From assembly GCA_028716565.1 (NCBI GenBank), contig JAQUPL010000001.1:211545-275544 (forward strand): a DNA stretch of 64,000 nt, given 5' to 3'. The stretch is from Candidatus Omnitrophota bacterium (GTDB lineage Bacteria > Omnitrophota > Gorgyraeia > Pluralincolimonadales > Pluralincolimonadaceae). Position numbers and translations under genes: made by a program. Below are positions 5,878 to 54,500 of this stretch, piece after piece; positions within the stretch are counted from its first letter, which is position 1; the number at the start of each line of letters is the position of its first letter. The notes beneath the pieces were generated by a model. It was not told where the DNA came from. It saw only the letters and a list, made by a program, of their open reading frames with translations, and made no database searches.

Positions 5878-6514
5878 CCTTCTTCTTTATTTTGACCCTT
5901 TCGGGCAGCGGGACGATTCCTCCCGAGATGACCAGTTTAAGCCCTTCCTCCACGCTCATGTCCAGCTTTATCATCTCCTTTTCCGGCACAAGAAGTAAAA
6001 ATCCCGAAGTAGGATTAGGCGAGGTTGGGACAAAGACGTTTGTTACCCTTGTCACGGTCTTGTCCTGGAGCTCTCCCTTGCCTTCATATGTCACGAACCC
6101 TATGGCGTAGATGCCCGGCCTGGGGAACGCGACAAGCACGACCCTGGTAAATATGCTCTTCGACTGGCCGAGGATGGCATGGCTCATCTCTTTTATGGCG
6201 CCGTAGATCTTGCCTATCATTGGCAGTTGGGAGATATTTTTTTCCCAAAAAGAGAAGAACTTCCTTAAAAATAAGATCCTGGTGCCGAAGCCTATGAGTG
6301 AAATTATGACGACAAGAAAGACAAGAGTAAGGACCTTCGCTATGTATTCGAGGATAGTGCTGTCAAGGATGAACGGCCGCAGGAAGTCCGCTATGGGCTC
6401 AAGCAGGAAATAGTTGGTTTTAACAACAGCGAATTTTACCAGCCAGATGGTTATTAAGGCCGGAAGTATTACCGCGACGCCCGTGATAAAATTCTTTCTG
6501 ATGCTTGTGAACAT
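5858..6514 (-). CDS. DUF502 family membrane protein
   Basis: 218 aa; two N-terminal TM helices followed by a conserved DUF502-like core (IGKIYGAIKEM...RVVLVAFPRPGIYAIGFVT...VFVPTSPNPTSGFLLLVP). Confidence 0.7.
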   Translation of the reverse strand: MFTSIRKNFITGVAVILPALITIWLVKFAVVKTNYFLLEPIADFLRPFILDSTILEYIAKVLTLVFLVVIISLIGFGTRILFLRKFFSFWEKNISQLPMIGKIYGAIKEMSHAILGQSKSIFTRVVLVAFPRPGIYAIGFVTYEGKGELQDKTVTRVTNVFVPTSPNPTSGFLLLVPEKEMIKLDMSVEEGLKLVISGGIVPLPERVKIKKKDGDTDN

Positions 6515-6515
6515 A

Positions 6516-7223
6516 TCAGCCCCTGTATAAAAGTTCGAATATCAGAAGCGTGGCGAGTATGCCGACCACAGATCCGGCTATCGCCTCCCATACCGTATGC
6601 AGCCCTTTCCTTACCCTCGATATGGCCAACAGTATCGCCATCAGGAAGGCAAGCGCGGAGGCCACGCCGTTGAGGGTAAGCAGTGTTATCACGGTAAAGA
6701 CAGAGAAACCGAGCGCCGAATGGCCGCTGGGCCAGCCGCCCCTTAGCGGCGTCCCCCTCCTCAAAAGTATCTTGATTATTATCACCAGGGAAATTACCGC
6801 GACGAGCGCGATGAAAGTGATGTGCCAGGGCGATTGCCTTATGCGGGAGATGCCCTCAGAGAGGTCTATTAGTTTTACCGTCTTGAAGAAGATCAAGTAT
6901 CCGACTATGACAGCGTAAACGGACGTGACGAAGACGCACCCTGCCGCGATATCCTTCGCCAGCTTGGCCATATGGTGGAATTCCTTGGTGAACATATCTA
7001 CGGCCAGTTCGAGGGCAGTATTGAACATCTCGGCTACGATCACCAGGGTGACCGCGCTTAAAAGCAGGATGAATTCCACGGGCGGCAGTCCCGCGACCAG
7101 GCCGAGTATTATGACCGCCGCGCCTATCACAAAATGGATGCGCATGTTCCGTTGGGTCTTGAGCGTATGCTTAAGCCCCTCTATCGCGTAATTGAAAGAC
7201 TCTGTAAGGCCGCGTTTTTTCAT
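6516..7223 (-). CDS. dgkA: fusion protein: prokaryotic diacylglycerol/undecaprenol kinase (DgkA) domain + PAP2 lipid-phosphate phosphatase domain
   Basis: The N-terminal 120 aa match DAGK_prokar (SFNYAIEGLKH...VAEMFNTALE). The C-terminal half carries PAP2 motifs K-x7-P (KILLRRGTP), PSGH and SR-x5-H-x3-E (SRVRKGLHTVWE). Confidence 0.8.
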   Translation of the reverse strand: MKKRGLTESFNYAIEGLKHTLKTQRNMRIHFVIGAAVIILGLVAGLPPVEFILLLSAVTLVIVAEMFNTALELAVDMFTKEFHHMAKLAKDIAAGCVFVTSVYAVIVGYLIFFKTVKLIDLSEGISRIRQSPWHITFIALVAVISLVIIIKILLRRGTPLRGGWPSGHSALGFSVFTVITLLTLNGVASALAFLMAILLAISRVRKGLHTVWEAIAGSVVGILATLLIFELLYRG

Positions 7224-27478: not shown

Positions 27479-30232
27479 TCAGAACTTTACTTCAAGTTCC
27501 TTTGTGTCCGCGGGAACGCTGATCCTGTTCTTGCCGAGCGTCAGGATATACCCACCCGGAGGCGGCGTCGCGCAATCGGTAGACAGCTTGACAAAGCCCT
27601 TGGCTCGCGAGCTTTCTACTTTGAAAGATACCTTGCCAAAATACGTCGGGGCATCCTTTATCTCTATGACCTTGCCGTCATCGAGCCACGAGTCCGGGAT
27701 GCAGGACAAAAGCACCAGCTTATCGCCGTCCTCGCGAAAAAGCATGTCGCGCAGCAGTAAAATATAATGCGCGGCCGACCAGCCGTGCGGGACGTCGCCT
27801 ACTATCCCTTCGGTGATCTCCCTCAATCCTTTAGAGTTGACCTTGGTCGGCATCGCCTCCATCCATCCGCCGGGGCAGGATTGGTGCTCTATACCCCACT
27901 CGATGCTCTTAAGCGCGACGTCTTCCATTCCAATATATATAAGGGGATGCGCGAGCTTGAAATTATATCCCCAGAAGAGCTGCTCGTATTCAACGAACCA
28001 CCCGCCGTCATAGTCCGAGAACTTCCCGGCGTTCTTCCAATATTGCTCATATGAAGTCTTGAACAGCTCCGCAGGTACCGGGATGCCCATATTCTCTCCC
28101 GGGAATAATGCCGGCCTGTGCGCCCACGCCATCTGCGTATCGCCCAGTATGCGGTGATCCATGTCCTTTATGCGCATCTCTTTGGGCCAGTAATCGGCGA
28201 ACCCGGGCATGAACGACAGCCCGTTCTTCTTCATCGATTTTTCGATGCTCGCGATAGTGGCGGAATGGAGGCTTCCGTATTCGGCTTTCATCCATTTGGC
28301 GTCATCCGGTTTTCCGAGTATCTGCGCCGACTCGTAAGCCGCCTTAAGGCCTATCATCGCCCACCAGTCATCTACGTAAAGGTAGGCAGGTATCTTGAAA
28401 TTGTCCTGGCTCACCCCCTTAGGAAGGAGCCCGTAAGCCACGTCTTCCTTCGGCAGTGACATCTGCGGGGCCCGGACCTTCCTTATGAGTTCGCACGCCG
28501 ACTTCATCCTGGGATATGCGGCCTCCAGGTATTTAACGTCCTTTGTCAGCCGGTAATGCTCGTAAGGCGCGAAGATGCTGCCGCCGAGCTCGTCTACGTA
28601 GCCGCCGCCTTCCTTGTAATTGAAGTGTTCGGTTGAGGCGCGCGCCTCTTCGGTAAGCCCTGCCTTGTCGAGCGCGTTGTCCATATCTATCGCGTCATGC
28701 ATGAAGAACGATGTATATTCATACGGGCCCGGGAAAAGTTTATGTTCCTCGTCCATTATCAGGATGTAATAGAGAGATGAATAAAAACAATCACTGTAGC
28801 GCTTATCCGGGATATTCATTACGAGCGGGATGCGGCCTTTCCAGTATTTGAACGTCAGCGCGAGCGCTTCGTCGAAACCTTTATCCTTGATGTCGTTAAA
28901 TGACAACTCCGCTCCTGTGCCTGATGGTACGATAAAATCAAGGGATTCTGTAGTACCGGCAGGTATCTTTTTCCTGTAAGATAGCGAATCCCTCAGGTCT
29001 TTGCCTAGAGGGCCTTCCGCCCTTTCGTCAAGGAAGAGCCGCGGCGCGCCGTTTATCTTTACGGTATGGTCGGCGTCGTATTCGATCGTCTTCATATCCG
29101 TAACTTTCCATTTAGGGTAAAGCGGGTTCGGCCGGATGACTGCCATTATCAACACTTCTTTATCCCGGGCGCTTGTATTTTTGACAGATTCCCTGGCAAA
29201 GGTCAGGACTTTGCCTGCTTTTTCATCGAACCAGGAGAATATCTTCGTCTCGCCTTCGATACCGTTGCCTTTCCACGATACCACCGTCACAGGATACCCG
29301 CCGTCGACCAATTTCCAATCGGTATGGAGCGTTTCCGGGGTATAGAGCCGGTCGTCATCGTTTACCCAGAAACTGACCCTGAACGGGTAAGGATAGACGG
29401 CAAAAGAACCGTCCTTTCCGATGAAAGTCTTGAATTTGGAACCCTCCCACCCGGCGAGGCCGCGGGCCTTGTTCAGGCCTTTGTGTTTGGCGATATCGTC
29501 CCAGTCCTTGAATTCGATCTTCTTCATCACGCTTTCCTTCCCTTTGTTGTCTTCACAGTTGATCTTTATGTGGCGTTTCCCGAATATGTTAGCATATATC
29601 CTGTCCTGTCCGCCAGTGCAAACCTCTTTATTATAGACGGTCTTCCGGCGGTTATCCTCTTCGATCTCCACGCGGTACGATCTTGGGAAGTCCTCCCCCC
29701 ATGTTATAAATAAAGCGCCGATATTCCTGTCCTTCTTGAGCTCTATCGAGATCGTAGTCCTGCCGTTATCGCTCGAGGTCTTTATCGGTATCTCGTCATC
29801 GAGCCCTTTGATCCTGATCTCCCAGATCGAATATCCCCACGCCGTGCCGCGCTCCTTTAAGTCCAGTTTTATGAATCGCGCCTTCTTCCTCCCGAAATAT
29901 ACGTCGTCGACTACCCCTTCGCCTTCGGACGTGGAATAGGCGTTCTCCCAATTTTTCCCGTCCTCTGATATGAGTACGTCGTAGGATCTCGCGTAAGCGG
30001 CCTCCCAGTTTATGATCAGGCCGACCAGGTCCTCGGTCCTCCCGAGGTCTATCTGGAGCCATTGCCTGTCGGAGAACCCGCTCGACCATCTCGACTGCAG
30101 GTTATTGTCGAACGCGTAAGAGGGCCCGGTGGAATCGTTTTCGGATGATGACGCATTCACCGTTGCGGCGTTTGAAAGATGGGCTATCGCCAAAAATATG
30201 CAAAGGATCATTGCGGTCTTTATCTTTTTCAT
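27479..30232 (-). CDS. secreted protein with two N-terminal F5/8 type C (discoidin) domains and a large C-terminal domain, possibly a carbohydrate-active enzyme
   Basis: 917 aa with a signal peptide ([22 protein letters not shown]). Two discoidin-like modules (..QWLQIDLG...[25 protein letters not shown].. and ..[24 protein letters not shown]..) precede ~600 aa of unassigned, possibly (alpha/alpha)6-like, sequence. Confidence 0.55.
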
Positions 30233-31070: not shown

Positions 31071-33722
31071 CTAGCTCTCTAATCGTTTTAAGTTCTCCCT
31101 TAATTTTCCCAAAGATACTTTCGCCTCGGAGAGCTTCTCCTTCTCCTTGTCGATGATATCTTTCGGCGCCCGTTCAACGAAGTTCTTGTTATTCAGTTTC
31201 GATTCTATGGATTTAACATATTTTTCAAGTTCTCCGGCCTTCGACATCATCTTCTTCTTTTCCGCCTCGATGTCCACAAGCCCCTCGAGCGGCACGCATA
31301 TCTCGCAATCGCCGAATACGGCTACCGAGGAGGCCTTCGGCCGTTTCAGTTTTTCAGTGACCTCAAGCGATTCGAGCCTTCCCAGGTTCTTTATATAATC
31401 GAGCGACTTGTCGATAGCGGCGCGGCTCTTCGCGCTCCCGGCCGCGACTATCGCTTTGCAGCTCTTCTGCGGCGGGATGTTCACCTCGGCGCGGATATTC
31501 CTGATGACGGTTATTATGCCTATCGCGAGGTCCATCTCCTCTTCGGCTTTTTTATCTATAAGGTCCTTCTGTAGGTGCGGCCACGGTTGGACCATTATCG
31601 AGTCCCTCTTGTGCGGCAGGATGCTCCATATCTCTTCCGTAAGGAACGGCATTATGGGATGCAGCAGCCTTAGGCTTTTCTCCAGCACCTTATATAAGAT
31701 CACCTGCGTATTTTTTTCCTTTATGCGGCTCTTGGCTATCTCCAGGTACCAGTCGCAATATTTATGCCAGATGAAGTCGTAGAGCAGGTTTGCCGCCTCG
31801 CTGAACCTGTACGATCCGAGCGCCTTTTCCAGGCCCTCGAGCGTCGAATAGAGGTTGCTGAGTATCCACCTGTCGGCGAGAGTCAGGTCCGCGTTCTTGT
31901 ATAAGACGCAAAGGTCAGTGTCGACGTCTTCCGAGAGGTTGGCCATAACGAACCTCGACGCGTTCCAGATCTTATTCGCAAAATTCCTGCCGACCTGGAA
32001 TTTTTCTTTCGACAGGAATACGTCCTGGCCCACTGCGGTGATCGAGATTATGCTGAACCTCAGCGCATCGGTGCCGAACTCGTCTATTATTTCGATAGGG
32101 TCGATGATGTTTCCCAGGGATTTGGACATCTTCGCGCCGGTCTCGTCGCGCACCGTGCCGTGGATGTAAATATCCCGGAACGGCGCATCGCCCATGAACT
32201 CATATCCTGCCATTATCATGCGCGCGACCCAAAAGAATATTATCTCCTGCGCCGTTACCAAAGTCGATGTCGGATAGAAATACGCGAGGTCCTTTGTCTT
32301 CTCCGGCCAGCCGAACGTCGAGAACGGCCAGAGCCACGAGGAGAACCAGGTATCGAGGACATCTTCGTCCTGTACGATATCCGTCCCGCCGCAATCCGGG
32401 CATTTCTGAGGTTTTGAGCGCGCTACTATTATTCCCTTCTTTCCCTCGCTCGCTTTTTGGCACTTTCCGCAATAATAGACAGGTATCCTGTGGCCCCACC
32501 ATATTTGCCTCGAGATGCACCAGTCGCGGATGTTCTCCATCCAATCGAGATATACCTTGCTCCAGCGCTCCGGATAGAATTTTATCTTGCCGCTTTTGGC
32601 CGCCTCTATGCCCGGCTTAGCCAAGGGTTTCATCTTCACGAACCACTGTAATGAGAGGTAGGGCTCTACAACGGTGTGGCACCTGTAGCAGTGTCCGACC
32701 GAATGCGCGTGCTGGTCGATCTTCTCGAGAAGGTTCATCTCTTTCAAGTCTTCGATTATCGCCTCGCGCGCCTCGAACCTGTCCATCCCCGCGTAATCCC
32801 CGGTGTTCTTGCTCATGCTGCCGTCAGGGTCCATCACGACTATAGGTTCAAGGCTGTGCCGCCTGCCCATGTCAAAGTCATTGGGGTCGTGGGCAGGGGT
32901 CACTTTGACCGCGCCGGTGCCGAATTCCGGGTCAACGATATCGTCGGCGAAGACCTTTATCTCCCTGTTAATAAGAGGGAGTATCAGTGTCTCGCCCACC
33001 AGGTTCTTATACCTTTCGTCCTTCGGATTTACCGCGACCGCGACATCGCCCAGCATCGTCTCAGGGCGCGTCGTAGCGACGGTGACGTACCTCTTCTCGC
33101 CTTTTACCGGATATTTTATGTAATAGAGCAGGCCGTTGAGGTCTTTGTGCTGGGCCTCCTCATCGCTTAACGCGGTCTGGCACCTGGGGCACCAGTTGAT
33201 GATGTAATTTCCGCGGTAGATAAGCCCCTTTTCGTAAAGGCGTATGAATACTTCATTGACCGCGCTTGAAAGGCCTTCGTCCATCGTGAAACGCGTGCGG
33301 TCCCAGTCGCACGAACAGCCGAGCCGCTTCAACTGCGAGATTATGGTGGTGCCGTACTGCTCGCGCCACTGCCAGACGCGCTCTATGAACTTTTCGCGGC
33401 CGAGGTCCTGCCTCTTCTTCCCTTCTTTCGCGAGCATCTTCTCGACGACGTTCTGTGTCGCGATGCCGGCGTGGTCTGTCCCGGGAAGCCACTCGGCGTT
33501 CCAGCCCTGCATCCTGCGCCACCTTATGATGATATCCTGGATAGTGTCGTTGAGGGCGTGGCCCATATGGAGGATGCCGGTAATATTAGGCGGCGGGATG
33601 ACTATCGTGTAGGGCTTGCGTTCCGAGTCGGGTTCGGCATGGAAGAGTTTCTTCGACTCCCAAAGCTTGTACCACTTGTCTTCCGTCACCTTCGGGTTGT
33701 ATGCAGAAGGTATCTCTGGCAT
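31071..33722 (-). CDS. valS: valine--tRNA ligase
   Basis: 883 aa; HMGHALN (HIGH) and KMSKS motifs, plus a C-terminal coiled-coil. Confidence 0.96.
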   Translation of the reverse strand: MPEIPSAYNPKVTEDKWYKLWESKKLFHAEPDSERKPYTIVIPPPNITGILHMGHALNDTIQDIIIRWRRMQGWNAEWLPGTDHAGIATQNVVEKMLAKEGKKRQDLGREKFIERVWQWREQYGTTIISQLKRLGCSCDWDRTRFTMDEGLSSAVNEVFIRLYEKGLIYRGNYIINWCPRCQTALSDEEAQHKDLNGLLYYIKYPVKGEKRYVTVATTRPETMLGDVAVAVNPKDERYKNLVGETLILPLINREIKVFADDIVDPEFGTGAVKVTPAHDPNDFDMGRRHSLEPIVVMDPDGSMSKNTGDYAGMDRFEAREAIIEDLKEMNLLEKIDQHAHSVGHCYRCHTVVEPYLSLQWFVKMKPLAKPGIEAAKSGKIKFYPERWSKVYLDWMENIRDWCISRQIWWGHRIPVYYCGKCQKASEGKKGIIVARSKPQKCPDCGGTDIVQDEDVLDTWFSSWLWPFSTFGWPEKTKDLAYFYPTSTLVTAQEIIFFWVARMIMAGYEFMGDAPFRDIYIHGTVRDETGAKMSKSLGNIIDPIEIIDEFGTDALRFSIISITAVGQDVFLSKEKFQVGRNFANKIWNASRFVMANLSEDVDTDLCVLYKNADLTLADRWILSNLYSTLEGLEKALGSYRFSEAANLLYDFIWHKYCDWYLEIAKSRIKEKNTQVILYKVLEKSLRLLHPIMPFLTEEIWSILPHKRDSIMVQPWPHLQKDLIDKKAEEEMDLAIGIITVIRNIRAEVNIPPQKSCKAIVAAGSAKSRAAIDKSLDYIKNLGRLESLEVTEKLKRPKASSVAVFGDCEICVPLEGLVDIEAEKKKMMSKAGELEKYVKSIESKLNNKNFVERAPKDIIDKEKEKLSEAKVSLGKLRENLKRLES

Positions 33723-33723
33723 A

Positions 33724-35292
33724 TTATTTTCGGTCTTTGAGCAGTTTATATTCGATGGAATCTACCAGGGCGTTCCAGGACGCCTCGATGATGTTCTCGG
33801 ATACGCCGATAGTCCACCATGAGTCCTTCGCATCTTCCGATTGGATGAGGACGCGGACCTTCGCCGCGGTGCCGGCCTTTTCGTCAAGCACGCGCACCTT
33901 GAAGTCGGAAAGGCGCATCTCCGCCAAAGCAGGGTAGAATTCCAGGAGCGCCTTGCGCAGCGCGTTATCCAGGGCGTTAATAGGGCCGTCTCCCTCGGCC
34001 GCGGTATGCTCCTCGACTTTGTTGACTTTTACCTTTATAGTCGCTTCGGAAAGCAGCTTGTTGCCTTTATGCTCCGTAACGACCTTGAAGCCCTCGAGTT
34101 CGAAGAATCTCTTGTATTTCTTGAACGCCCGCTTCAATAAAAGTTCCAGCGAACCTTCCGCGGCCTCAAAATGATAACCCTCATGCTCAAGTTTCTGCAG
34201 AAGTTTCAGGATCTTCTTGGTCTTGGGCGCCTCTTTTGTAAGGTTGAGGTCCAACTCGAGCGCCTCGGCCTTCAGCAGGATAGAGGTCTTTCCGGAAAGT
34301 TCGGATACCAAAAGCCTCCTCTTGTTCCCGACCAACCGCGGGTCGATATGCTCGTATGTGACCGGGTTTTTCATTATAGCGTTGATGTGCACCCCTGCCT
34401 TATGGGTGAAAGCGCTGTTGCCCACGAACGGCTGGTTCTCCTGCTGTTTTACGTTGCTGATCTCTGCGATAAATCTCGATGTCTCGGTCAGTTCCTTAAG
34501 TTGCGCGTTAGTCACGCAGTTGATCCCTAATTTCAATTTAAGGTTACCGATCACCGCTGCGAGGTCGGCGTTTCCGCAGCGCTCGCCGTAACCGTTAAAT
34601 GTCCCCTGGACCTGCGCGCATCCCGCCTGGACGGCCGCGATAGAATTAGCGACGGCCATGGCGCAGTCGTTGTGGCAATGGATCCCTACCGGGCAGTCAA
34701 GTTTCGCCAACACTTCTTTTACGGTATCGACGAGATCCGATGTAATCGTCCCGCCGTTCGTGTCGCAAAGGATGATGCAGTCCGCTCCGGCGTCGCGCGC
34801 GGCGAACAGCGTTTTCGCGGCGAAATCCGGATCGCTCTTGTAGCCGTCAAAGAAATGCTCGGCGTCGTAAAACACCGTTTTCCCTTTTGACTTTAAGTAC
34901 GAAACGGTCTCTGAGATCATCTTTAAATTCTCTTCGAGCGGGACCTTGAAGACGTCCCTGACATGCATGTCCCATGACTTTCCGAAAATAGTGATATGTT
35001 TTGTGCCGGAATCCAGGAGCCCGCGGACGATGGCATCGCGGCTGATCGCCGTGTTGGCGCGGCGGGTCGATCCGAAAGCGACGATACCGGAATTCTTCAA
35101 TTTAAGTTTCTTCGCGGCCTTGAAGAACTGCATATCCTTCGGGTTGGACCCCGGCCATCCGCCCTCGATATAATGGATGCCCAGGCCGGCAAGCTTCTCC
35201 GTGATGCGCAGCTTATCATTCACCGAATAGGAGATCCCCTCGGTCTGCGCACCGTCGCGAAGCGTCGTGTCGTATAATTTCACATCTTTCAT
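33724..35292 (-). CDS. cimA: LeuA-family citramalate synthase-type protein (CimA-like; 2-isopropylmalate/citramalate synthase family)
   Basis: 522 aa; MKDVKLYDTTLRDGAQTEGISYS...IEGGWPGSNPKDMQFF is the short LeuA-related (citramalate synthase) clade N-terminus. HMGL-like TIM barrel plus a C-terminal regulatory domain. Confidence 0.7.
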   Translation of the reverse strand: MKDVKLYDTTLRDGAQTEGISYSVNDKLRITEKLAGLGIHYIEGGWPGSNPKDMQFFKAAKKLKLKNSGIVAFGSTRRANTAISRDAIVRGLLDSGTKHITIFGKSWDMHVRDVFKVPLEENLKMISETVSYLKSKGKTVFYDAEHFFDGYKSDPDFAAKTLFAARDAGADCIILCDTNGGTITSDLVDTVKEVLAKLDCPVGIHCHNDCAMAVANSIAAVQAGCAQVQGTFNGYGERCGNADLAAVIGNLKLKLGINCVTNAQLKELTETSRFIAEISNVKQQENQPFVGNSAFTHKAGVHINAIMKNPVTYEHIDPRLVGNKRRLLVSELSGKTSILLKAEALELDLNLTKEAPKTKKILKLLQKLEHEGYHFEAAEGSLELLLKRAFKKYKRFFELEGFKVVTEHKGNKLLSEATIKVKVNKVEEHTAAEGDGPINALDNALRKALLEFYPALAEMRLSDFKVRVLDEKAGTAAKVRVLIQSEDAKDSWWTIGVSENIIEASWNALVDSIEYKLLKDRK

Positions 35293-35303
35293 TTTATTCG
35301 CCT

Positions 35304-36530
35304 TTATTTTGCCTTCTTCAGGTCAAATTCGTCATGGAGGGTCTTAAGCGCCAATTCCCCGTGTTTCTTCCCGATGACGCAGGATATCTTTATCTCGGAT
35401 GTAGATATCATCTCGATGTTTATTTTCTTCGAAGCCAGCGCCTTGAACATCCGCGCCGCGATGCCGGCGTGGCTCCTCATTCCGATGCCGACTATCGATA
35501 TCTTCGCTATGTTCTCGTCCTTTACCACCTCTCCGGCGCCTATCTCCCTGGCGACCTTCTTGGCGACCTTCATGGTCTTGGCCAGGTCCTCGGTCAGGAC
35601 GGTAAATGAGACGTCGGTGGTGCCGGTTCGGCTCACGTTCTGGACTATCATGTCTATGACTATGTTATTTACCCCTAATTCCTTGAATATAGTGGCGGCG
35701 ATCCCCGGCTTGTCCGGGACATCACAGATGGTCAGCTTTGCCTCGTCTTTTTGCAGCGCGACACCGCTTACGTCTATTCTCTCCATCGATTTTGCCTCCT
35801 TGCAGATTATAGTCCCTTCGGCGTTCGAGAAACTCGAGCGGACATGTATGGGTATATCGTAACGCTTGCCGTATTCTACGGACCTCGCCTGCATCACCTT
35901 CGCGCCGAGCGAGGCGAGTTCCAGCATCTCGTCATAACTCACCTTCGAAAGTTTTTTGGCGTTCTTGACTATCCTCGGGTCTGCGGTGTAGACCCCGTCG
36001 ACGTCGGTATATATCTCGCATATCTTCGCGCCGAGCGCGCTCGCGAGCGCGACCGCGGTCAGGTCGCTTCCGCCGCGGCCGAGGGTGGTTATTTCCTTCT
36101 TTATGCTCATTCCCTGGAATCCGGCGACTACCACTATCTTGCCTTCCTTAAGCCGTTCCTTTATCCTGTCGGCGGATGATATATTTAAAATACGCGCTTT
36201 GGTATGGGAGGTATCGGTTATGATGCCGACCTGGGCGCCGGTAAAAGATATCGCCGGCTCGCCGAGCTTCTCAACTGCCATAGCCAGTAAAGCGCACGAT
36301 ATCTGTTCGCCGGTAGAGATAAGCATGTCCATCTCGCGTTCGGACGGGTCGTCGGTGACCTTGTATGCAAGTTCGATGAGCTCGTCTGTGGTGTCGCCCA
36401 GCGCCGACACGACGACCACGACGTCATAGCCCTCTTTTTTGTAACGCACAACGCGTTTGGCGACGTTTATGATCCTTTCGGGATTCGCGACAGAAGAGCC
36501 CCCGTATTTTTGGACTATTAGCGATCTCAC
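35304..36530 (-). CDS. lysC: aspartate kinase (with tandem ACT domains)
   Basis: 408 aa; MRSLIVQKYGGSSVANPERI, an amino-acid kinase fold, and two C-terminal ACT domains. Confidence 0.94.
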   Translation of the reverse strand: MRSLIVQKYGGSSVANPERIINVAKRVVRYKKEGYDVVVVVSALGDTTDELIELAYKVTDDPSEREMDMLISTGEQISCALLAMAVEKLGEPAISFTGAQVGIITDTSHTKARILNISSADRIKERLKEGKIVVVAGFQGMSIKKEITTLGRGGSDLTAVALASALGAKICEIYTDVDGVYTADPRIVKNAKKLSKVSYDEMLELASLGAKVMQARSVEYGKRYDIPIHVRSSFSNAEGTIICKEAKSMERIDVSGVALQKDEAKLTICDVPDKPGIAATIFKELGVNNIVIDMIVQNVSRTGTTDVSFTVLTEDLAKTMKVAKKVAREIGAGEVVKDENIAKISIVGIGMRSHAGIAARMFKALASKKINIEMISTSEIKISCVIGKKHGELALKTLHDEFDLKKAK

Positions 36531-36551: not shown

Positions 36552-37751
36552 TTAGCTTTTCATGAAGTATTCCATAAGCTCGTGGCCGTGCCCGAAGGCA
36601 AGGCCGGTCGCCTTGGCCGCCGCTTCGCTGTACTCCGCAGTGTTATTAGGCTCGATGCCCTTACCGAATACCGCGAAGGGCACCGGTTCGGCAGTATGGG
36701 TCCGGAGCGATACCGGGGTATTATGGTCCGGCAGGACCATGACCCTGAAATCCTTTTGTTTCTTGAATTTTTCGAGGAGAGCCCCGACGATGAACCTGTC
36801 GAAATTCTCGATCGCAACTATCTTGGCGCGCAGGTCGCCGTTATGTCCGGCCTCATCAGGCGCCTCGACATGCACGAAGACAAAATCCCTGTCTTTGAGC
36901 GAATCTATCGCGTATTTCGCCTTGCCCTGGTAATTTGTATCGTAATAGCCGGTCGCCCCCGGCACGTTTATGACGTTGAGCCCTATTGATTTGCCGATAC
37001 CTTTTATCAGGTCTACGGCGGAGATGACCGAGCCGTCGACGCCGTATTTCTGCCTGAACTTCGGCATGTTAGTCTCGACCCCCTGGCCCCAGAGCCATAT
37101 CATATCGGCCGGGTTCTCTTTCAGGTCTATCCTTACATGGTTTACTTCGTGGTCCGGCAGTATGGCCCTCGAGTCCTCCATGAGCTTTATCAAAAACTTC
37201 GCGCCGTCGCCCTTCGGGAGATGGCTTTTTATCTTCATCCCGGTTATATCGTGCGGCGGCTCGCACGCGGTGGCGCGTAGCGCCTCCTTCAAAGAGCCGT
37301 CCCTGACTATCATCAGGTGCCTGTAGCTTACGCCCGGATAGAACTTTATATTATCCGAACCGAGCTTCTTATCAAGGAATTTAATTAAGGTCGCCGCCTC
37401 TTCGGAGGTTATGTGTCCCGCCGAATAATCGGCCATCCGTTCCTGGTCTATAGTGACCAGGTTGCACCGGAACGCGATGTCATCCGGCCCGAGCTTTATC
37501 CCCATGTTCGCGGCCTCAAGCGGCCCCCGCCCCGAATAATACTTCGACGGGTCATAACCGATGATAGAGAGGTTCGCGACATCCGAAGCCGGCGCGAAAC
37601 CTTCCGGGATGGTATGGACCAGGCCCGACCTCCCGTTCTTGGCTATAAAATCCATGTTCGGGACCTTGGCGGCCTCGAGCGGTGTCTTGTTCCCTAATTC
37701 CTTGATCGGGTAATCCGCCATGCCGTCGCCGACCAGGACGATATATTTCAT
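36552..37751 (-). CDS. cofactor-independent phosphoglycerate mutase family protein (archaeal ApgM type); by context a candidate non-orthologous homoserine kinase
   Basis: 399 aa; MKYIVLVGDGMADYPI...GRSGLVHTIPEGFAPASDVANLSIIGYDP is the iPGM/ApgM metalloenzyme (alkaline-phosphatase superfamily) N-terminus. Sits between lysC and thrC where thrB would be expected. Confidence 0.75.
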   Translation of the reverse strand: MKYIVLVGDGMADYPIKELGNKTPLEAAKVPNMDFIAKNGRSGLVHTIPEGFAPASDVANLSIIGYDPSKYYSGRGPLEAANMGIKLGPDDIAFRCNLVTIDQERMADYSAGHITSEEAATLIKFLDKKLGSDNIKFYPGVSYRHLMIVRDGSLKEALRATACEPPHDITGMKIKSHLPKGDGAKFLIKLMEDSRAILPDHEVNHVRIDLKENPADMIWLWGQGVETNMPKFRQKYGVDGSVISAVDLIKGIGKSIGLNVINVPGATGYYDTNYQGKAKYAIDSLKDRDFVFVHVEAPDEAGHNGDLRAKIVAIENFDRFIVGALLEKFKKQKDFRVMVLPDHNTPVSLRTHTAEPVPFAVFGKGIEPNNTAEYSEAAAKATGLAFGHGHELMEYFMKS

Positions 37752-37754
37752 TTC

Positions 37755-38822
37755 TTATATGCCTATCGCCTTTAGGACCGATCTCATATCGGCCTTGACC
37801 GATTTTGGTTTGCTTAAAGTTGAAATAGCCCTGTCCGGGTCCTTGAGCCCGTGCCCGGTCAGGATGCAGACGATCTTTACCTTTTTAGCCGGGTTTTTCT
37901 TGAAGAAACCCTTGCGCATCATCTTAATAAGGCCGGCCACAGACGCTGCCGAAGCCGGTTCCGCGAATACGCCTTCTTTTAACGCGATGAATTTATAGGC
38001 ATCGAGTATCTCTTTGTCCGAGACCATGCCTATGGTCCCGCCGGATTCATCGCGCGCCGCCTCGGCTTTTTCCCAACTCGCTGGATTGCCTATCCTTATC
38101 GCGGTGGCGATAGTCTCGGGATGCTCTATTATATGCCCCCTCACGATAGGCGCGGCGCCCTCGGCCTGGAAGCCCATCATCTTCGGAAGCGCTTTTATCT
38201 TTCCATGTTGCTTGTATTCTTTGTAGCCCTTCCAGTACGCGGTGATGTTTCCCGCATTGCCGACCGGGATGAAATGGTGGTCCGGCGCGGACTCAAGCGC
38301 CTCGCAGATCTCGAACGCTCCGGTCTTCTGTCCTTCTATCCTGTACGGGTTTAAAGAATTGACGAGGGTTATCGGGTATTTGCCGGTTATATCTTTTACG
38401 AGTTCCAGCGCTTCATCGAAATTCCCTTTAACTGCCAACACTTCGGCCCCGTAGATTATCGCCTGGGCGAGTTTTCCCAACGCTATCTTACCCTCAGGGA
38501 TAAGGACAATGCATTTGATACCCGCGCGCGCCGCATAAGCGGCGGCAGAGGCCGAGGTATTCCCGGTCGAGGCGCACATTATCGCCTTCGAACCCTCCTC
38601 TACGGCTTTCGAGACGGCCATGGTCATACCGCGGTCCTTGAACGAACCGGTCGGGTTCGCCCCGTCGAATTTCAGGTAGACCTCATATCCTTTCCCGATC
38701 TTCTTGCTTAAATTACAGGAATATATAAGCGGTGTATTCCCTTCGTTCAGGGTTATGACCGGGGTCTTGGAAGAAACAGGAAGATATTTCCTGTATTTGT
38801 CTATTAATCCTCGCCACATCAT
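37755..38822 (-). CDS. thrC: threonine synthase
   Basis: 355 aa; [14 protein letters not shown]...[18 protein letters not shown] (PLP lysine in SFKDRG). Confidence 0.93.
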
Positions 38823-38823
38823 A

Positions 38824-40122
38824 TTATCTCTCTACCCTTATCGCGACGGTCTTGCGCCTTATCGCCGCCATCCTGTCTATCTCCTCAAGCGCCTGCCTCA
38901 TATTCTTCTCTTTCGCCTCGTGGGTCATCATAACGACCGGGACGATGCGCGCCGCGCGCCTTTCCTTCTGTCCGACGCTGGCTATCGATATCTTGTGGCG
39001 GCCGAGTATCCCGGCGACCTTGGCGAGCACACCGGGCTTGTCGATGCATGAGATGCGGATATAATAACTCGCCTCGATATCGCCTATCTTCCTTATCTTC
39101 TTTATCGATTTGTTCTTCATGTAGATCGGGACCCTGCCGACGGAATTAAACCTTAAATTCCTGGCGAGGTCGATGATATCGCCTACAACCGAGCTTGCCG
39201 CGGGGTTCTGTCCCGCCCCGCGCCCGTAGAAGAGGGCCCCGCCGACCATGTCGCCGTGGACATAGATGGCGTTATAGACGCCGTTAACATTGGCAAGCAG
39301 GTGCTCTTTCGATAAGAGGGTCGGGTGCACCCTTACCTCTATTTCGCTGTCGCATTTTTTTGCGATCGCGAGGAGTTTTATGGCGTAGCCGAATTCGTCG
39401 GCATACCTGATATCGTTCTGCGATATATCGAGTATCCCTTCAACGTAGATATCCTTGAGTTTTACCGCCTTCCCGAAACCGAGCAGGGTCAGGATAGCGA
39501 GCTTATGGGCGGAGTCATAACCCTCGATATCGAGCGCCGGATTGCGCTCGGCATATCCCTTCTTCTTCGCCTGTTCGAGGGCGTCGGAGAAGCTCAACCC
39601 CTCTTCGGCCATGGCCGAAAGGATGTAGTTCGAGGTACCGTTCACGATGCCGAGTATGGTGTCGATCTCGTTGGCGACGAGCCCTTCACGCAAAGACTTG
39701 ATTATCGGGATGCCGCCGCCTACCGAGGCTTCGTAGAAGATATCTACTCCTGCCTTCTTCGCCGCGTCGAATAGCTCTTCGCCGTGTTCGGTTATAAGCG
39801 CTTTATTGGCGGTGACGACGTGCTGTCCGCTCTTTATCGCCTTAAGCACGAATTCCTTGGCCGGATGGATACCTCCCACGAGCTCAACGACGATATCGAT
39901 GTTTGGATTCCCGAGGACCTTGTTGACGTCGCTGGTCATAAGCTTCCTGTTGATCTTGATGTTCCGCTTGCGCCGCAGATCGTTGTCGCAGATGACCTTA
40001 AGCACGACTCGCGCGCCGACCTGCCGTTCTATCTGGGCGGATTTCTGCAATAACGCCTTCGCGACGCCGACTCCTACGGTCCCGAACCCTATCAGGCCTA
40101 CGTTGATCTTCTCCATTCTCAT
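38824..40122 (-). CDS. hom: homoserine dehydrogenase
   Basis: 432 aa; NAD-binding [12 protein letters not shown], a catalytic domain, and a C-terminal ACT domain. Confidence 0.93.
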
Positions 40123-40154: not shown

Positions 40155-40231
40155 ATGGTCGGGGCGAGCGGACTTGAACCGCTGACCACTTGTACCCCAT
40201 ACAAGTGCTCTACCAAACTGAGCCACGCCCC
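40155..40231 (-). tRNA. tRNA-Pro (anticodon GGG)
   Basis: Minus-strand CGGGGCGTGGCTCAGTTTGGTAGAGCACTTGTATGGGGTACAAGTGGTCAGCGGTTCAAGTCCGCTCGCCCCGACCA folds as a cloverleaf: 7-bp acceptor, GCTC/GAGC D stem, CTTGT/ACAAG anticodon stem with loop AUGGGGU, AGCGG/CCGCT T stem, encoded CCA. Confidence 0.9.
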
Positions 40232-40254
40232 GGATTATTCGGATTTAGAAAATA

Positions 40255-40263
40255 AATTATAGC
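40255..40263 (-). promoter_or_regulatory. extended -10 promoter (TGcTATAAT) upstream of tRNA-Pro
   Basis: Minus-strand TGCTATAAT at 40263..40255, 24 nt upstream of the mature tRNA 5' end. No good -35. Confidence 0.35.
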
Positions 40264-40301
40264 AGATTTTTGGGGAGGTGTATAGAGGGAAATTACGCAG
40301 C

Positions 40302-43088: not shown

Positions 43089-44879
43089 TTAGAGTTTAAG
43101 GACCGCCATAAAGGCTTCCTGCGGTATCTCGACTTTTCCGAACTGCTTCATGCGTTTCTTGCCTTCTTTTTGCTTCTCCCAGAGTTTGCGTTTTCTCGAT
43201 ATGTCGCCGCCGTAGCACTTCGCGGTGACGTTTTTTCCGACCGGCCTGACCGTCTCCCTGGCGATTATCTTGCTTCCTATCGCCGCCTGGAGCGCTACCT
43301 CGAACAACTGCCTGGGGATAAGCTCCTTCAATTTAGTGACGAGCTGGTTGCCCTTCGTATGCGCGTTGTCCTTATGGATAATGAACGAGAGCGCGTCGCA
43401 CGGTTTGCCGTTTATAAGTATGTCGAGCTTCACGAGGTCGCTCGCTATATATTCCTTGAACTCGTAATCCAGCGAGCCGTAGCCCCGGGTCATCGATTTT
43501 ATTTTATCATAAAAATCCACAATAATCTCGGATAAAGGGAACTCATAGATGAGCATCGCCCTTGTCGGGTCGAGATACTCGGTCGATTTGTATATCCCCC
43601 TTCTCTCCTGGCATAACTGCATCACGTTCCCGAGCGAATCCGATGGCGATATGACGAACGCCCTTATGAACGGCTCCTCGATCTCGTCGATCTCCTGCGG
43701 GGCCGGGAGCTTGCTCGGGTTCTCGATCTCGACCGTCTCGCCATTGGTCTTTATGACTTTATATACGACGCTAGGCGTGGTCGCGATGAGGTTAAGGTTA
43801 TATTCCCTTTCAAGGCGTTCCTGTATGATCTCCATGTGAAGAAGGCCGAGGAAACCGCAGCGGAATCCGAACCCGAAAGATACGGAGGACTCGACTTCAT
43901 ATATAAAGGAAGCGTCGCTCAGTTCCATCTTTTCCAGCGCGTCCCTGAGGAACGGGAAGTCCTTTGCGTTTACCGGGTAGAGGCCGCAGAAGACGAGAGG
44001 CCTTACTTTCTTATATCCGGGGAGCGCATCGGCCGCCGGCCTCCTGAAATCAGTTACCGTATCACCGACATGGACCTCTTTTGGCACCTTGATATTACAG
44101 GTGATGTAGCCGACCTCTCCGACCGAGAGTTCATCGACAGCGACAGGCGCAGGCTTGAATACGCCCACCTCTTCTATGTCGTAGACGCGGCCGGTGCCCA
44201 TCATCTTGATCTTCATTCCCTTCCTGATCGTCCCGTTCTTGAGCCTTATATATACGACGACGCCCTTGAACGTATCGAACGCCGAGTCGATTATAAGCGC
44301 CTGCAGGGGGTTTTCTGTTTCGCCCTTCGGAGCCGGTATTTTGTCGACGATCGCCTGTATTATCTCGTCTACGCCTATCCCCGATTTAGCGCTGGCCATT
44401 ATCGGCTCTATCTCAGTCAAATGGAGCGTATCCTTGAGTTGCTGGACCACCCTATCCGGTTCGGCGCTCGGCAGGTCTATCTTGTTTATTACGGGGATGA
44501 TGACGAGGTTGTGTTCCCGCGCGAGATAGAGGTTGGCGACTGTCTGGGCCTCGACGCCCTGCGCCGCGTCGACGACGAGAAGCACACCCTCGCATGCGGC
44601 AAGCGCTTTTGAGACTTCGTAGGTGAAATCGACGTGGCCGGGCGTATCGATGAGGTTGAGGATGTAATCCTTCCCTCCGGCCGAATGGTTTAACCTTACG
44701 GCTTTGGCCTTGATGGTGATGCCGCGCTCCCTCTCAAGGTCCATACCGTCGAGCATCTGGTCGTGGAATTCCCTCTGGGAGATAGCCCCTGTCTTCAGGA
44801 GCAGCCTGTCGGCTAAGGTCGATTTCCCGTGGTCTATATGCGCGATGATGCAGAAATTGCGGATTAACGACTTATCCAT
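43089..44879 (-). CDS. lepA: translation elongation factor 4 (LepA)
   Basis: 596 aa; [23 protein letters not shown]-domain and the LepA C-terminal domain. Confidence 0.96.
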
Positions 44880-46342
44880 TATTTGATCGTTTTGGACATC
44901 CTGTCGACTATGGCGATGAGGTCCTTGGCTTCCTTGTCGGTATGAGCCTCGCTGTAGACCCTGAGGATCGGTTCTGTGCCCGAAGGCCTTATCAGGAGCC
45001 AGCTCTCGTCGTCGAAGATGAATTTCAGGCCGTCGTAGGTCTTTATGTCGACGATCTTACGCTTGAATATCTTTTCTGAGCTTTTTCCCCGCTGATGCGG
45101 GACTTCGCCCTGCAGTTTCGAGAAGAGGACCTTGACGACTTTTTCCCTGGTCTTAAGCGGTATCTCGACGTCCTGCCTGTGATACCTGAATTTGCCGAAC
45201 TTCTTTTCCATATTTTCTATAAGTTCGAGTATGGGCTTCTTCTCCTGCTGCATCATCTCGACGAGCAAGAGCCCGGTCAATATGCCGTCCCTTTCCGGGA
45301 TGTAGTTCTTCACGCCTATGCCGCCCGATTCCTCCCCGCCGACCAGGACGTTCTCGCGCTGCATCAGTTTCGCGATGTGCTTGAAGCCGACCGGCGTCTC
45401 GAAGAATTTCAGGTTATAATACTTCGCTATCTTGTTCATGAGCATCGGTCCGGCTATATTCTTGACGAGCGCCCCTCTCCAACGCCTGTTCTCTATGAAA
45501 TGCAGGGCGATAAGGCACATTATCTCTCCCGGGTTAATGAACCTTCCGCCCGGGGCGACCGCGCCTACCCTATCTGCGTCGCCGTCGGTGGCCAGGCCTA
45601 TGTCGTACCTGCCCCTCTTCATGATCTCCATCAGTTTTGGCATGTTATGCGGGAGTGGCTCAGGCTTCAGCCCTTCGAATGAAGGGTTCGGCTCGGCATT
45701 GATAGTATCTATTTTTACCTTAGTGCCTTTTAAGACGGCCGCGTGATAACTGTTCCCGGCCCCGTGCATCGCCTCCGCCACCACTTTGAGGCCGCAGTTC
45801 TTCAAAAGGTCCAGGTCGAGATATTTCCGGACCGCGTCGAGATATTTCGGCATCGGGTTTATCACCTCGACCTTCTTTGTCCTGACGGCCTCTTCGAGCG
45901 ATACGGTCTTTACCTTATTCTTGTATAGGAAGGCCTCGACCTTATGGGTCACGGTCTGGTCCGCAGGAGAGCCGAACGGCGTCTTTATCTTGAGCCCGCT
46001 GAACCTTCCCGGGTTATGGCTCGCGGTGATGATGAGCCCTCCGTTCAAACCCAGCAGCCTTATATTGTAGCTTGTCGTCGGCGTAGGCGACGGCCTGTCA
46101 GAGAGATATGTCTTTATGCCGTTGGCGGCCAAAACCTCTGCTACGGCCTGGGCGAATTTATCGGATATGAAACGGGTATCGTAGCCGATTATGATACGGC
46201 GCGGGGCCTTGAATTCCTTATTGAAATGATCTGCGCATGCCTGCGCCACTATCCGCACATTCTCAAAAGTGAAATCCTCGGCTATCAGGCCTCTCCAGCC
46301 GTCTGTCCCGAATTTGATCTTCGATTCCTCTGCCTTCTTCAT
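44879..46342 (-). CDS. phosphoglucomutase/phosphomannomutase family protein
   Basis: 487 aa; KFGTDGWRG, active-site [13 protein letters not shown], and metal-binding DGDADR. Confidence 0.85.
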
Positions 46343-51263: not shown

Positions 51264-51578
51264 CTACTTTGATTTGAGGTTTTTGTCGAGGATCTCTATC
51301 CGCGAATCGGCCTTTTTCTTGTGCTGCAGCGCGAGGCGTTCTTCTATAACAAGGTCAAGCTGTTCTTTCAGCGTATTAGGAGTGATCTTTAATGAAGGAT
51401 TTTCACTGATGCGCAGCGCGAGAGCCATCTTCAGGTCTTTATTGGTAATAGGCTCGCCGTTGACCGTCGCTATGACTTTTTCGACCGGCTGGACGGCAGC
51501 CGGTTTTTCAGCCGGCCTGCCGCAGCCTAACAATAAGAAAGTAGCTAAAAGTAAGAGTATTTTTTTCATTAAATTCAT
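51264..51578 (-). CDS. small lipoprotein with a SurA N-terminal-like chaperone domain
   Basis: 104 aa; lipobox LLGC. VIATVNGEPITNKDLKMALALRI...LKEQLDLVIEERLALQ resembles the SurA_N / PpiD N-terminal helical chaperone module (compare the SurA motif pattern AAVVNNGVVL..L...IMERLIMDQIILQ). Start overlaps the stop of the giant gene by 4 bp. Confidence 0.6.
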   Translation of the reverse strand: MNLMKKILLLLATFLLLGCGRPAEKPAAVQPVEKVIATVNGEPITNKDLKMALALRISENPSLKITPNTLKEQLDLVIEERLALQHKKKADSRIEILDKNLKSK

Positions 51579-54500
51579 GGTGTTAAAACTCCGGCTACCA
51601 CTTCATCAAGTATATACGAGGTTCCATCGTAAGTTATTGAACCGGCGGCTTGACCTGTGGCCGTTGAGCCATTTATCTGACCAAGGATATCTGCAGTATA
51701 TGTGGTTTCAGTTATGTTGGTATATGTATGGTTGAGATAATCGGAAAGGTTAGAAATAGTATCTATCTCTCCTATGACAGGAAGTGCCGACCGAATTAGC
51801 TGACCATAACCGACAAATATTCCAGTATCATATACGCTTAAATCAATACTGCCAGCAATCAAGTTGGCATTTCCGGATACGTCGGTAAGTAATGCGGTAT
51901 AGGTTTCGGTTATCGGGACCTGGACCATATCGGCTAACGCGACTTGGTCAAAACCTAGCGCGCTTGTCGCGATCTCGGCCAAGTCTACCCAATCGCCCTC
52001 CACTTTGGCGTTCCAGGTCGTATCTACATTAGTAATGTCGGAGATGGTGCCGTCTACCATGCCTACCCATAACGTATCTTCTCCCTCCGTGTGCATCCCG
52101 AAAGAAACGCCGTGGAAACCATTTGAGCTCGCGGTCCCAAGTAAATATCCATCGACCACGCCGTCATCATAAGACTTGATGCCTAATGCCAGCCGCCAGT
52201 TTGAATTCTCCTCTATATTTCCTGTGCCTGCCAGCATACCACTGTATGTACCCGTATCAGGCATGCCTTCGGGGATCCCCAGGTTTGTAACCGCTTCTCC
52301 TCCGAACAGGCCGGCCATAAGGACGCCGTTAATATTGCCCCATCCGCTCCCTGCGACATCGATCTCGTTTGTTATTATATGTTCCTCTTTCAGATCGATT
52401 ATCTGTTCATATCTTCCGATGGCGAGCGCCTCCCATCCATCGGTGTCATTATATACGCCGGCGATATTTCCGGATATCTCGCCTAACCTGGTGCCGTAGA
52501 GAGTGACGCCGTTCATCGTCGCCAGGAATCCGTTGTCCGTCCATTCCGACCCTGATATCACAGCGACCCAGGGGCTGCGCCCGTAGATCCTGTCGCCTTC
52601 ACCGGCCAAGACCGAATTCCACGCGCCGGTTGGCAGAGACGCGTAGGCACCGCCCGCCGACGCGCGCCACAGACCCCAGTTTTGGTCACGAAGCTGAATA
52701 TGTTCGCCGCTGACAAAGCCGCTGACGTTGCCGTTTATAACGGCGTCTAAATCGCCGTATTCAAATACTACGTCTATATCATCATTCATCACGTCCATTA
52801 AAAAGAGCTCAGGCGATATATCAGTCTGCTGGCCGGGATAAGCGGTCATATTTCCGTAAGCGTCAAACATGCTTATCGACGGATAGAAAGCGCCGTTGAC
52901 GTAGGCGGGATTACCTGTCCCGTCGGAAGATAACACATACCCGGCGAGATAATCGTCATCGCCGTCGGCGTCAAGATCGCCGGCATTACGGACATAAATG
53001 GCTGCCAGCATGCCTTTAAGCGAGTTATTTAATGTTGTGCCTCCCACAGAACCGTATAGCACAGAGTTCCCGTTGGTGACCGCAACAAAATCCGAACCCC
53101 AGAGATTGTAGTAACCCGCGCCGTCTTCATTGATATCCGGATTATCGTAATTGCCGAGTATCGTGAACTCCGGCGAATTATCCCAGAGCACCCCAGTACT
53201 GCCTAGGACGCCGTTGACATATCCGTAATCGAGCATATCGTAATCGCCGAAATATCCGTCGATCATCATTCCGCCGGTCACAAGCGGTTTCTCCACCCAC
53301 CCGCCTATAGCCGAAAGGGCGAACGTCGAATACCCCTCGCGGTCGTTATATATGCCGCGGGCGTCTCCGAATATCGTCGACATCACGTTTCTTTCAAGGT
53401 CTATGGCGGTGCCGAATACGTCGCCCACTATCTTGTTACCGGAAACGCTGCTGTTCGAGATAGTGACGAGCTCATAATAGTTGTAGTAAGGTTCGTCACC
53501 GTCGTAATAGCCAAGCACAACCGCGCCTTCTTTTGCGTTCCCTTCATACCACGGTTCTCCCCATTCTCCGGCGAGGGTGATGTTGAACAGGCCCCACGGG
53601 TTATTCGCGATATAGTATGAACTTTCGCTCGCTGAGCCATAAACTAAATTAATGCCGTCGAACGATCCTCCGACCATATATTCCGCGTGATAGCCGTCTT
53701 CGGCAAATCTTTCGAAGAGGTCTTCAGGAGAGACTACGGTGCCGCCCATCGCCTGCCGGTATAGCGCGCCTTCAGCCTGCCACATCTCTATTTCATCGTT
53801 GTACCTTCCGTTGATATCGCCGTGAAGCAGGCCGACAGCCCCGTTCGCCGCATAAATGGCCCACATGCTGCCGTCGGACATTGATCCGTCCTTCCAGATG
53901 CCGGCGGAGAAGCCTTTAAAAGCGCCGCCGTCGAGAGTAGTCGAATTATCCAGTTCGGCATTATAGCTTTCTATGGGAGTGTTCCACAACAACGGGTTTT
54001 CTTCCGCGTAATTGTAGAATTTACCCATCGCCAATACCGGGAATGAAGCCTCATTCCACCACTGCTCGACTGTCGAGCCGATCAACCCCCATTCCTCGCC
54101 CGCTTTATCTATATAGCCGTAATTGTCATAGTATAAGCTGCGGACCTCATAACCCCACAGGCCGCTTAGGGTAAGCCGTCCGCCGTTCCAGACACCGGCA
54201 CCGACTCCCAGCCAGTCGCCCTCGCCTTCCCCTTCATATATTCCGAGTATCTTGCCGTCAATATTGCCCATCTTTGTATAGGTGATGAATTTCCCGTGCA
54301 GTTCGGCATCCACATCTTCTATGTAGTCGGATACCTCATCCCACGTCCCGGTCAAATCGGCCATCCAGTATCCGTAATCGTCGTTGAGGTAACCTTCACC
54401 TTCTCCGTCTCCATATTTAAAATAATAGGCGCCGAACGGATCATCCCCGCCCATAACGCCGGACCACGTAGTTTCGGATCCGGGGTCATCGTTTTCAAAC

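Follow-up and report, generated by a model that had tools for sequence, protein, structure and literature searches.

The gene examined here lies at positions 36552 to 37751 on the minus strand of a stretch of 64,000 nucleotides (nt) from a Candidatus Omnitrophota bacterium (contig JAQUPL010000001.1), and this whole stretch is referred to below as the window. The gene is very probably homK, also called thrB2, and its product, a member of family TIGR02535, would form O-phosphohomoserine independently of ATP by a ping-pong transfer via phospho-Ser56 and feed the adjacent threonine synthase ThrC. The initial annotation of the window had proposed that an ApgM-type homolog acts at this position as a non-orthologous homoserine kinase, and this proposal is supported by the score of the protein on TIGR02535, the glutamate typical of HomK, an intact catalytic centre, the adjacency to hom and thrC and the genetics of the family. 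The identity of the protein is not novel, as it passes the trusted cut-off of a curated and genetically validated family. The analysis itself shows that the protein belongs to this family, that its catalytic centre is intact and its substrate pocket altered, that its placement is conserved and that ThrB is absent nearby. The ThrB function of this family in vivo is taken from the literature; we infer the same function for the Omnitrophota ortholog, the ping-pong course of the reaction and the role of Glu296. The term kinase is probably a misnomer, since ATP is unlikely to be the donor.

Previous work on the HomK/ThrB2 family

The curators of TIGRFAMs proposed that TIGR02535 takes the place of homoserine kinase, and mutants of the member BT2402 of Bacteroides thetaiotaomicron were reported to be threonine auxotrophs (Price et al., 2020; PMC7311316). 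In a survey of 2856 gut genomes, the family was named ThrB2 and detected in 300 genomes, 278 of which are without thrB, so that the two genes show complementary occurrence; thrB2 was often found in operons with thrC and either hom or asd (Ashniev et al., 2022; PMC9026213). The 2026 version of the GapMind preprint describes the rescue of an Escherichia coli thrB::kan strain by BT2402 and by the divergent DET_RS08350 of Dehalococcoides mccartyi. It renames the enzyme HomK, with S56 as nucleophile and E299, a lysine in mutases, as proposed specificity residue, and argues that ATP is not the phosphate donor, that phosphoglycerate is unlikely to be the donor and that phosphoserine is a possibility (bioRxiv 10.1101/2024.10.14.618325). 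The literature on HomK biochemistry or on threonine synthesis in Omnitrophota yielded nothing beyond the GapMind papers and the study of Ashniev et al. (2022). The initial annotation had described the function as predicted for this family in some genomes. This understated the status of the family, as ThrB2/HomK is named, curated and genetically validated.

Family assignment and conflicting database names

The protein contains the domains PF10143 (1.1e-61) and PF01676 (1.3e-49). Of the solved structures, the cofactor-independent phosphoglycerate mutase (iPGM) of Pyrococcus horikoshii, 2ZKT, matches it best (E 8.5e-65), which bears out its earlier description as a protein of the iPGM/ApgM type. 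On TIGR02535, entitled "proposed homoserine kinase", it scores 575.9 bits and passes the trusted cut-off of 446.3, and this score exceeds the 551 bits (cut-off 320) obtained with the apgM subfamily model TIGR00306. With NF003242, an equivalog model entitled "cofactor-independent phosphoglycerate mutase", it reaches 593.9 bits (cut-off 426). It fails the archaeal mutase equivalog NF003104 (338.2 bits against a cut-off of 489, 151 bits short) and is a non-member of the PhpG family NF038358 (239 bits against 545). ApgM proteins of Thermococcus, Thermoplasma and Ferroplasma were scored as controls: all pass NF003104 with 542-628 bits and fail both TIGR02535 (280-330 bits) and NF003242 (286-332 bits). 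Because the control mutases fail these two models, both describe a single clade under contradictory names; in addition, they score the same proteins nearly alike (the target as well as P0097, P0121 and P0122). Judged by these model scores, the target is in the TIGR02535/NF003242 clade and outside the mutase equivalog.

The alternative implied by the database names is that the protein is a genuine cofactor-independent phosphoglycerate mutase of glycolysis or gluconeogenesis that merely happens to be located in a conserved gene string, which we regard as very unlikely. All close homologs in public databases are named accordingly, and the NF003242 score points the same way. However, the name of NF003242 is a label and not independent evidence, since this model tracks TIGR02535 score for score, and the cut-off of NF003104 that the target misses is one that every control mutase passes. 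Members of the clade, moreover, rescue thrB mutants (bioRxiv 10.1101/2024.10.14.618325). The public name "phosphoglycerate mutase" is probably wrong for the target, and the annotation of every Omnitrophota ortholog as a mutase is probably due to the conflict between NF003242 and TIGR02535.

Catalytic centre and substrate pocket

Residues were compared, in the numbering of the target, across three sets: 201 Omnitrophota orthologs (120 database proteins, the proteins of 80 related loci and the target), 150 diverse representatives with 37-60% identity and 120 archaeal ApgM proteins gathered with a profile of two solved structures. The codons and segments concerned are the following:

37584 to 37586, minus strand: Ser56 codon (TCG), predicted phospho-enzyme nucleophile; Ser in 201/201 Omnitrophota orthologs and 120/120 ApgM
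37413 to 37430, minus strand: residues 108-113, D-Y-S-A-G-H, in place of the ApgM motif D-R-R-A-G-R (residue comparison)
37089 to 37091, minus strand: Trp221 codon, replaces an Arg invariant in ApgM; W in 201/201 Omnitrophota orthologs
36864 to 36866, minus strand: Glu296 codon (GAG), putative HomK specificity residue, 3 residues before the metal ligand D299 (residue comparison)

The solved ApgM-type mutases 2ZKT and 3KD8/3IDD match the target at E 1e-61 to 1e-65, and an AlphaFold2 model of the target (predicted local distance difference test score 90.8) superimposes on 2zkt_B with template modelling (TM) scores of 0.82-0.86. The nucleophile and the binuclear metal site, formed by D9, S56, D299, H303, D342, H343 and H352, show no variation across the target, the 201 Omnitrophota orthologs and the 120 ApgM proteins, and phosphoryl-transfer chemistry via phospho-Ser56 is therefore expected to be preserved. 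R75, R95, R144 and R207 are likewise common to all groups compared. Ser56 matches S56 of BT2402 (bioRxiv 10.1101/2024.10.14.618325); D9 also has the same number in both proteins, and D342/H343 of the target correspond to D346/H347 of BT2402. The second-metal ligands that the preprint gives for BT2402 (D274/H278/H325) do not map onto the canonical D299/H303/H352 that are invariant here. By the numbering offset, D274 of BT2402 falls on D271 of the target, which is conserved in 200/201 Omnitrophota HomK proteins; the two solved mutases have N or G at this position.

A catalytic centre identical to that of 2ZKT would be in keeping with a mutase, but the surrounding pocket is remodelled: at five positions, the target has lost a basic residue on which 120/120 archaeal ApgM proteins agree (R109Y, R110S, R113H, R221W and K296E). 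At position 109, the Y of the target belongs to a Y/F/H pattern present in 135/150 representatives, and at position 110 its S belongs to an S/T/A pattern of the same frequency (135/150), while the replacement at position 113 is variable among HomK-type proteins. Trp221 is found in 147/150 representatives. Lysine 296 is also present in 2ZKT and 3KD8, and the glutamate that takes its place is shared by 128/150 representatives and 201/201 Omnitrophota orthologs. A further exchange affects position 143, where a histidine in 120/120 ApgM proteins is replaced by tyrosine in the target and in 132/150 representatives. Position 209 (K to D) was also considered as a discriminator and was dropped, being variable in both groups. 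Overall, five positive charges are lost from the pocket and one negative charge is gained, which is hard to reconcile with the binding of 2- or 3-phosphoglycerate and fits a zwitterionic amino acid.

The threonine gene cluster and its conservation

The gene string around homK comprises the following elements:

38824 to 40122, minus strand: hom, homoserine dehydrogenase with ACT domain, makes homoserine (NF004976 538 bits; PF00742, PF03447, PF01842)
37755 to 38822, minus strand: thrC, threonine synthase, uses O-phosphohomoserine (TIGR00260 345.9 bits, cut-off 167.1)
36552 to 37751, minus strand: homK/thrB2, predicted ApgM-like homoserine phosphotransferase, 399 aa, ATG start (open reading frame and curated models)
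35304 to 36530, minus strand: lysC, monofunctional aspartate kinase (NF005155 606 bits)
33724 to 35292, minus strand: cimA, citramalate synthase, threonine-independent route to isoleucine (TIGR00977 749.9 bits, cut-off 450)
31071 to 33722, minus strand: valS, 1-nt gap downstream of cimA (open reading frame, Pfam families); syntenic across the phylum, outside the pathway
40156 to 40232, minus strand: tRNA-Pro(GGG), located between gpsA and hom and marking where the string ends upstream (ARAGORN; Rfam 62 bits)
40256 to 40284, minus strand: TG-extended promoter-like site (TATACA-17-TATAAT) that lies upstream of the tRNA and hom (consensus scan only; weak)

The open reading frame (ORF) of the target runs for 399 codons from its ATG at 37751 to 36552. 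Both this ORF and the gene string were confirmed: hom, thrC, the target, lysC and cimA are all encoded on the minus strand with spacers of 1, 3, 21 and 11 nt in that order, and hom, thrC, lysC and cimA each score above the curated cut-off of the identifying model. The coordinates and model scores thus agree with the initial description of a contiguous hom-thrC-X-lysC-cimA cluster with gaps of 1-21 nt. The thrC stop codon TAA is followed by "gaa" and then directly by the ATG of the target, hom lies one gene away, and the 21-nt spacer between the target stop and lysC contains an AAGGAGG Shine-Dalgarno sequence. The statement that the cluster holds every threonine step except homoserine kinase was incorrect, as asd, encoding aspartate-semialdehyde dehydrogenase, is also absent from the cluster and from the 64-kb window. 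Beyond cimA, the tight string runs on into valS and nadC, both unrelated to threonine, and the presence of such unrelated genes in a conserved string counts in favour of the mutase alternative.

A contig scan with a 20-sequence profile retrieved 80 related loci of about 10 kb each, all from Omnitrophota metagenome-assembled genomes (MAGs) and with 60-80% identity. Wherever one of the 80 loci extends far enough for the order to be seen, it is hom, thrC, homK, lysC, cimA, usually with gpsA and tRNA-Pro(GGG) upstream and with valS and nadC downstream. The slot between gpsA and hom holds a tRNA-Pro in 26/30 loci checked (including L003, L004 and L007), a tRNA-Gly in L021 and L033 and no tRNA in L069 and L077. 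Insertions occur in many Omnitrophota lineages (L006, L007, L037, L041 and many other loci). Those between thrC and homK consist of a CoaB-like gene (about 210 aa), which is in some cases accompanied by LemA-like and TPM-like genes, and those between homK and lysC of a CstA-like transporter gene (about 529 aa). The lineage of the window is without any of these four kinds of insert, and those of the other Omnitrophota loci (CoaB-like ligase, LemA-like, TPM-like and CstA-like proteins) offer no relevant clue to the phosphate donor.

The gene context also bears on a second alternative, in which the target belongs to the same clade but acts, as phosphotransferase or phosphatase, on another amino acid and has no role in O-phosphohomoserine formation. 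It might form L-threonine-O-3-phosphate for cobalamin synthesis, or use phosphoserine and so substitute for SerB. Glu-bearing homologs beside cobD have been speculated to make threonine phosphate, SerB is often a gap in genome reconstructions (bioRxiv 10.1101/2024.10.14.618325), and a pocket with Glu296 could accommodate small amino acids of any kind. The target, however, adjoins hom and thrC rather than cobD in the window and in the 80 related loci, and neither the cluster nor the inserts of the other loci contain cobalamin or serine genes. In addition, its score is higher on TIGR02535 than on TIGR00306, unlike those of the cobD-linked proteins of the preprint. Taken with this evidence, a function confined to another amino acid is highly improbable.

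Search for canonical enzymes

An NCBIfam scan of 44 further ORFs, covering approximately the whole window, detected none of ThrB, ThrH, GpmA and GpmI. The scanned ORFs are housekeeping genes, among them ppdK, genes for aminoacyl-tRNA synthetases, dnaE, guaA, groESL, uvrB, gpsA, plsY, pgsA, lepA, lepB and trpAB. A tblastn search with E. coli ThrB (from NC_000913) against the window and the 80 loci (888 kb) returned nothing better than E = 0.03, a six-frame search for the GHMP motif PxGSGLGSSA was empty, and no GHMP family appears among the Pfam and NCBIfam matches of the target itself. The NCBIfam scan, the tblastn search and the motif search thus all bear out the earlier observation that the window contains no GHMP-type thrB. 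The lack of another pgm in the window could be counted in favour of a mutase, all the more as Embden-Meyerhof glycolysis, which requires this activity, is reported to be encoded in Omnitrophota (PMC10066038), yet a 64-kb window says little about a pgm gene elsewhere. One ORF (44879-46342, minus strand) belongs to the phosphohexomutase family, with its best score on the archaeal-type GlmM model (310 bits against a cut-off of 439), and is not a phosphoglycerate mutase.

Proposed mechanism and phosphate donor

Several points weigh against the assignment of the target as HomK. An earlier attempt at E. coli complementation failed (PMC7311316), and the later rescue in E. coli was weak, with a gain in optical density of 0.14-0.25 after 47 h. 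No in-vitro activity has been published for any member of the HomK family. NCBI itself labels the clade as phosphoglycerate mutase through its equivalog model NF003242. The proposed equivalence of E296 with E299 of BT2402 derives from a numbering offset of +3/+4 and from the lysine of the mutases rather than from a direct alignment, E296 being the only glutamate inside the offset window. Finally, synteny within the phylum is only modest evidence for functional coupling, because the unrelated gpsA, tRNA-Pro, valS and nadC share it, and the context argument is stronger from the independent associations described for other phyla in the literature than from Omnitrophota synteny.

In the HomK reading, the enzyme would belong to the alkaline-phosphatase superfamily as a two-metal phosphotransferase and would descend from ApgM-type cofactor-independent phosphoglycerate mutases. 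A donor other than ATP would phosphorylate Ser56 at the metal centre composed of D9/S56/D342/H343 and D299/H303/H352, and homoserine would then receive the phosphate from the phospho-enzyme at its gamma-hydroxyl. Glu296, in place of the mutase lysine, may contact the amino group of the substrate, and the loss of the arginines at positions 109, 110, 113 and 221 would remove the site that holds the anionic phosphoglycerate. The threonine synthase whose gene lies 3 nt upstream would use the predicted product, O-phospho-L-homoserine, and the GHMP-type ThrB would thereby be replaced.

A more specific, tentative and rather doubtful version is that HomK acts as a transphosphorylase that takes its phosphate from an amino-acid phosphate ester, most likely O-phosphoserine, so that a single reaction would give serine and O-phosphohomoserine. 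The Glu296 pocket and the four lost arginines would fit amino-acid substrates in both half-reactions. The window and the 80 related loci hold nothing for or against any particular phosphate donor.

Comparison with known systems

The target resembles the HomK proteins BT2402 of B. thetaiotaomicron and DET_RS08350 in belonging to the same curated family, in the numbering of D9 and S56, in the glutamate at the putative specificity position and in being encoded with hom and thrC. It differs from Bacteroides HomK in its phylum, Omnitrophota, and in its partners, which are monofunctional hom and lysC plus cimA, whereas the Bacteroides gene belongs to an operon of three genes with a fused bifunctional homoserine-synthesis enzyme, named Asd-Hom in PMC9026213. 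With the ApgM mutases (PH0037, which is 2ZKT, Thermoplasma 3KD8/3IDD and the characterised relatives PF1959, MJ1612 and SSO0417), it shares the two-domain fold, the serine nucleophile, seven metal ligands and about 32% identity. Unlike in these enzymes, a zwitterionic amino acid and not an anionic phosphoglycerate is predicted as substrate, and the transfer would take place between two molecules and not within one. The ApgM scaffold has also been recruited for intermolecular transfer in PhpG (NF038358), a CMP-5'-phosphonoformate--3-phosphoglycerate phosphonoformyl transferase.

Compared to ThrB, the ATP-dependent GHMP enzyme (E. coli b0003), the target would carry out the same step with the same product, O-phospho-L-homoserine, from the same operon slot beside thrC. 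Its fold, however, is unrelated, with no detectable similarity; it also lacks a GHMP motif, and its donor is not expected to be ATP. A precedent for the ATP-independent formation of O-phosphohomoserine in place of ThrB is ThrH, the phosphoserine:homoserine phosphotransferase of Pseudomonas aeruginosa, which belongs to the HAD superfamily. HAD enzymes use an aspartate nucleophile. The fold of the target is unrelated to that of ThrH and its nucleophile is different, and the window contains no ThrH-like gene. If the donor were phosphoserine, the favourite of the preprint, HomK and ThrH would be functional analogues.

Further observations on the clade and the window

Among the diverse representatives outside the window, P0126 and P0175 score above the TIGR02535 cut-off yet have Lys at position 296, with W221 kept, and about 20 others have A, S, H, D or another residue at this position. 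The HomK clade may therefore hold further substrate specificities. Eight clusters of long proteins (P0130, P0137, P0146, P0147, P0162, P0163, P0191 and P0255; 970-1120 aa), at least one of them from a Clostridia MAG, begin with a HomK-like N-terminal domain in which Glu296 is kept. In each of them, this domain is followed by a linker rich in acidic residues, a single transmembrane helix by prediction and about 500 aa of repeat-rich sequence. Their C-terminal parts are mutually homologous and have no Pfam match. The use of these fusions as Rosetta-stone evidence was rejected, as the partner, a membrane-anchored repeat domain without a Pfam family, is uninformative on threonine.

Around the cluster, the tRNA-Pro(GGG) lies on the same strand as the threonine genes, with the promoter-like site just upstream. 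This site is weak, because the number of such sites in the region is not above shuffled expectation. More generally, the promoter and terminator scans around the cluster did not exceed shuffled background, and the Rfam search for leaders or riboswitches gave the tRNA-Pro only. The minus strand carries 45/49 ORFs of a crude gene call over the window, and 30/32 two-kb windows have a negative GC skew, which fits a single replichore with strong gene co-orientation. Omnitrophota are noted for large proteins without known function. The ORF 51575-57376 (minus strand) encodes 1933 aa and shows only weak local NCBIfam matches far below cut-off, to the Leptospira surface proteins Lsa33 and LipL45 at residues ~215-365. 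No NCBIfam match at E <= 1e-5 was obtained for three minus-strand ORFs inside the housekeeping string, 27479-30232 (917 aa) and the pair 5858-6514 and 6516-7223 (~220-235 aa).

Implications

The initial idea about this gene is supported and was already known. Its residual value lies in three points: a database name that misleads, a residue signature that is now longer and the question of the donor. Under the mutase name, metabolic reconstructions of uncultured Omnitrophota would wrongly call threonine synthesis incomplete and might credit the gene to glycolysis. Adding the four lost arginines (109, 110, 113 and 221) and the H143Y exchange to the single published specificity residue gives a sharper signature to distinguish HomK from mutases and provides concrete targets for mutagenesis. 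The phosphate donor of the family is the real question, to which this locus offers no easier route than the Bacteroides enzyme. If phosphoserine is indeed the donor, HomK would close the gaps at ThrB and SerB, the steps most often "missing" from genome reconstructions, not only in Omnitrophota but in many other phyla.

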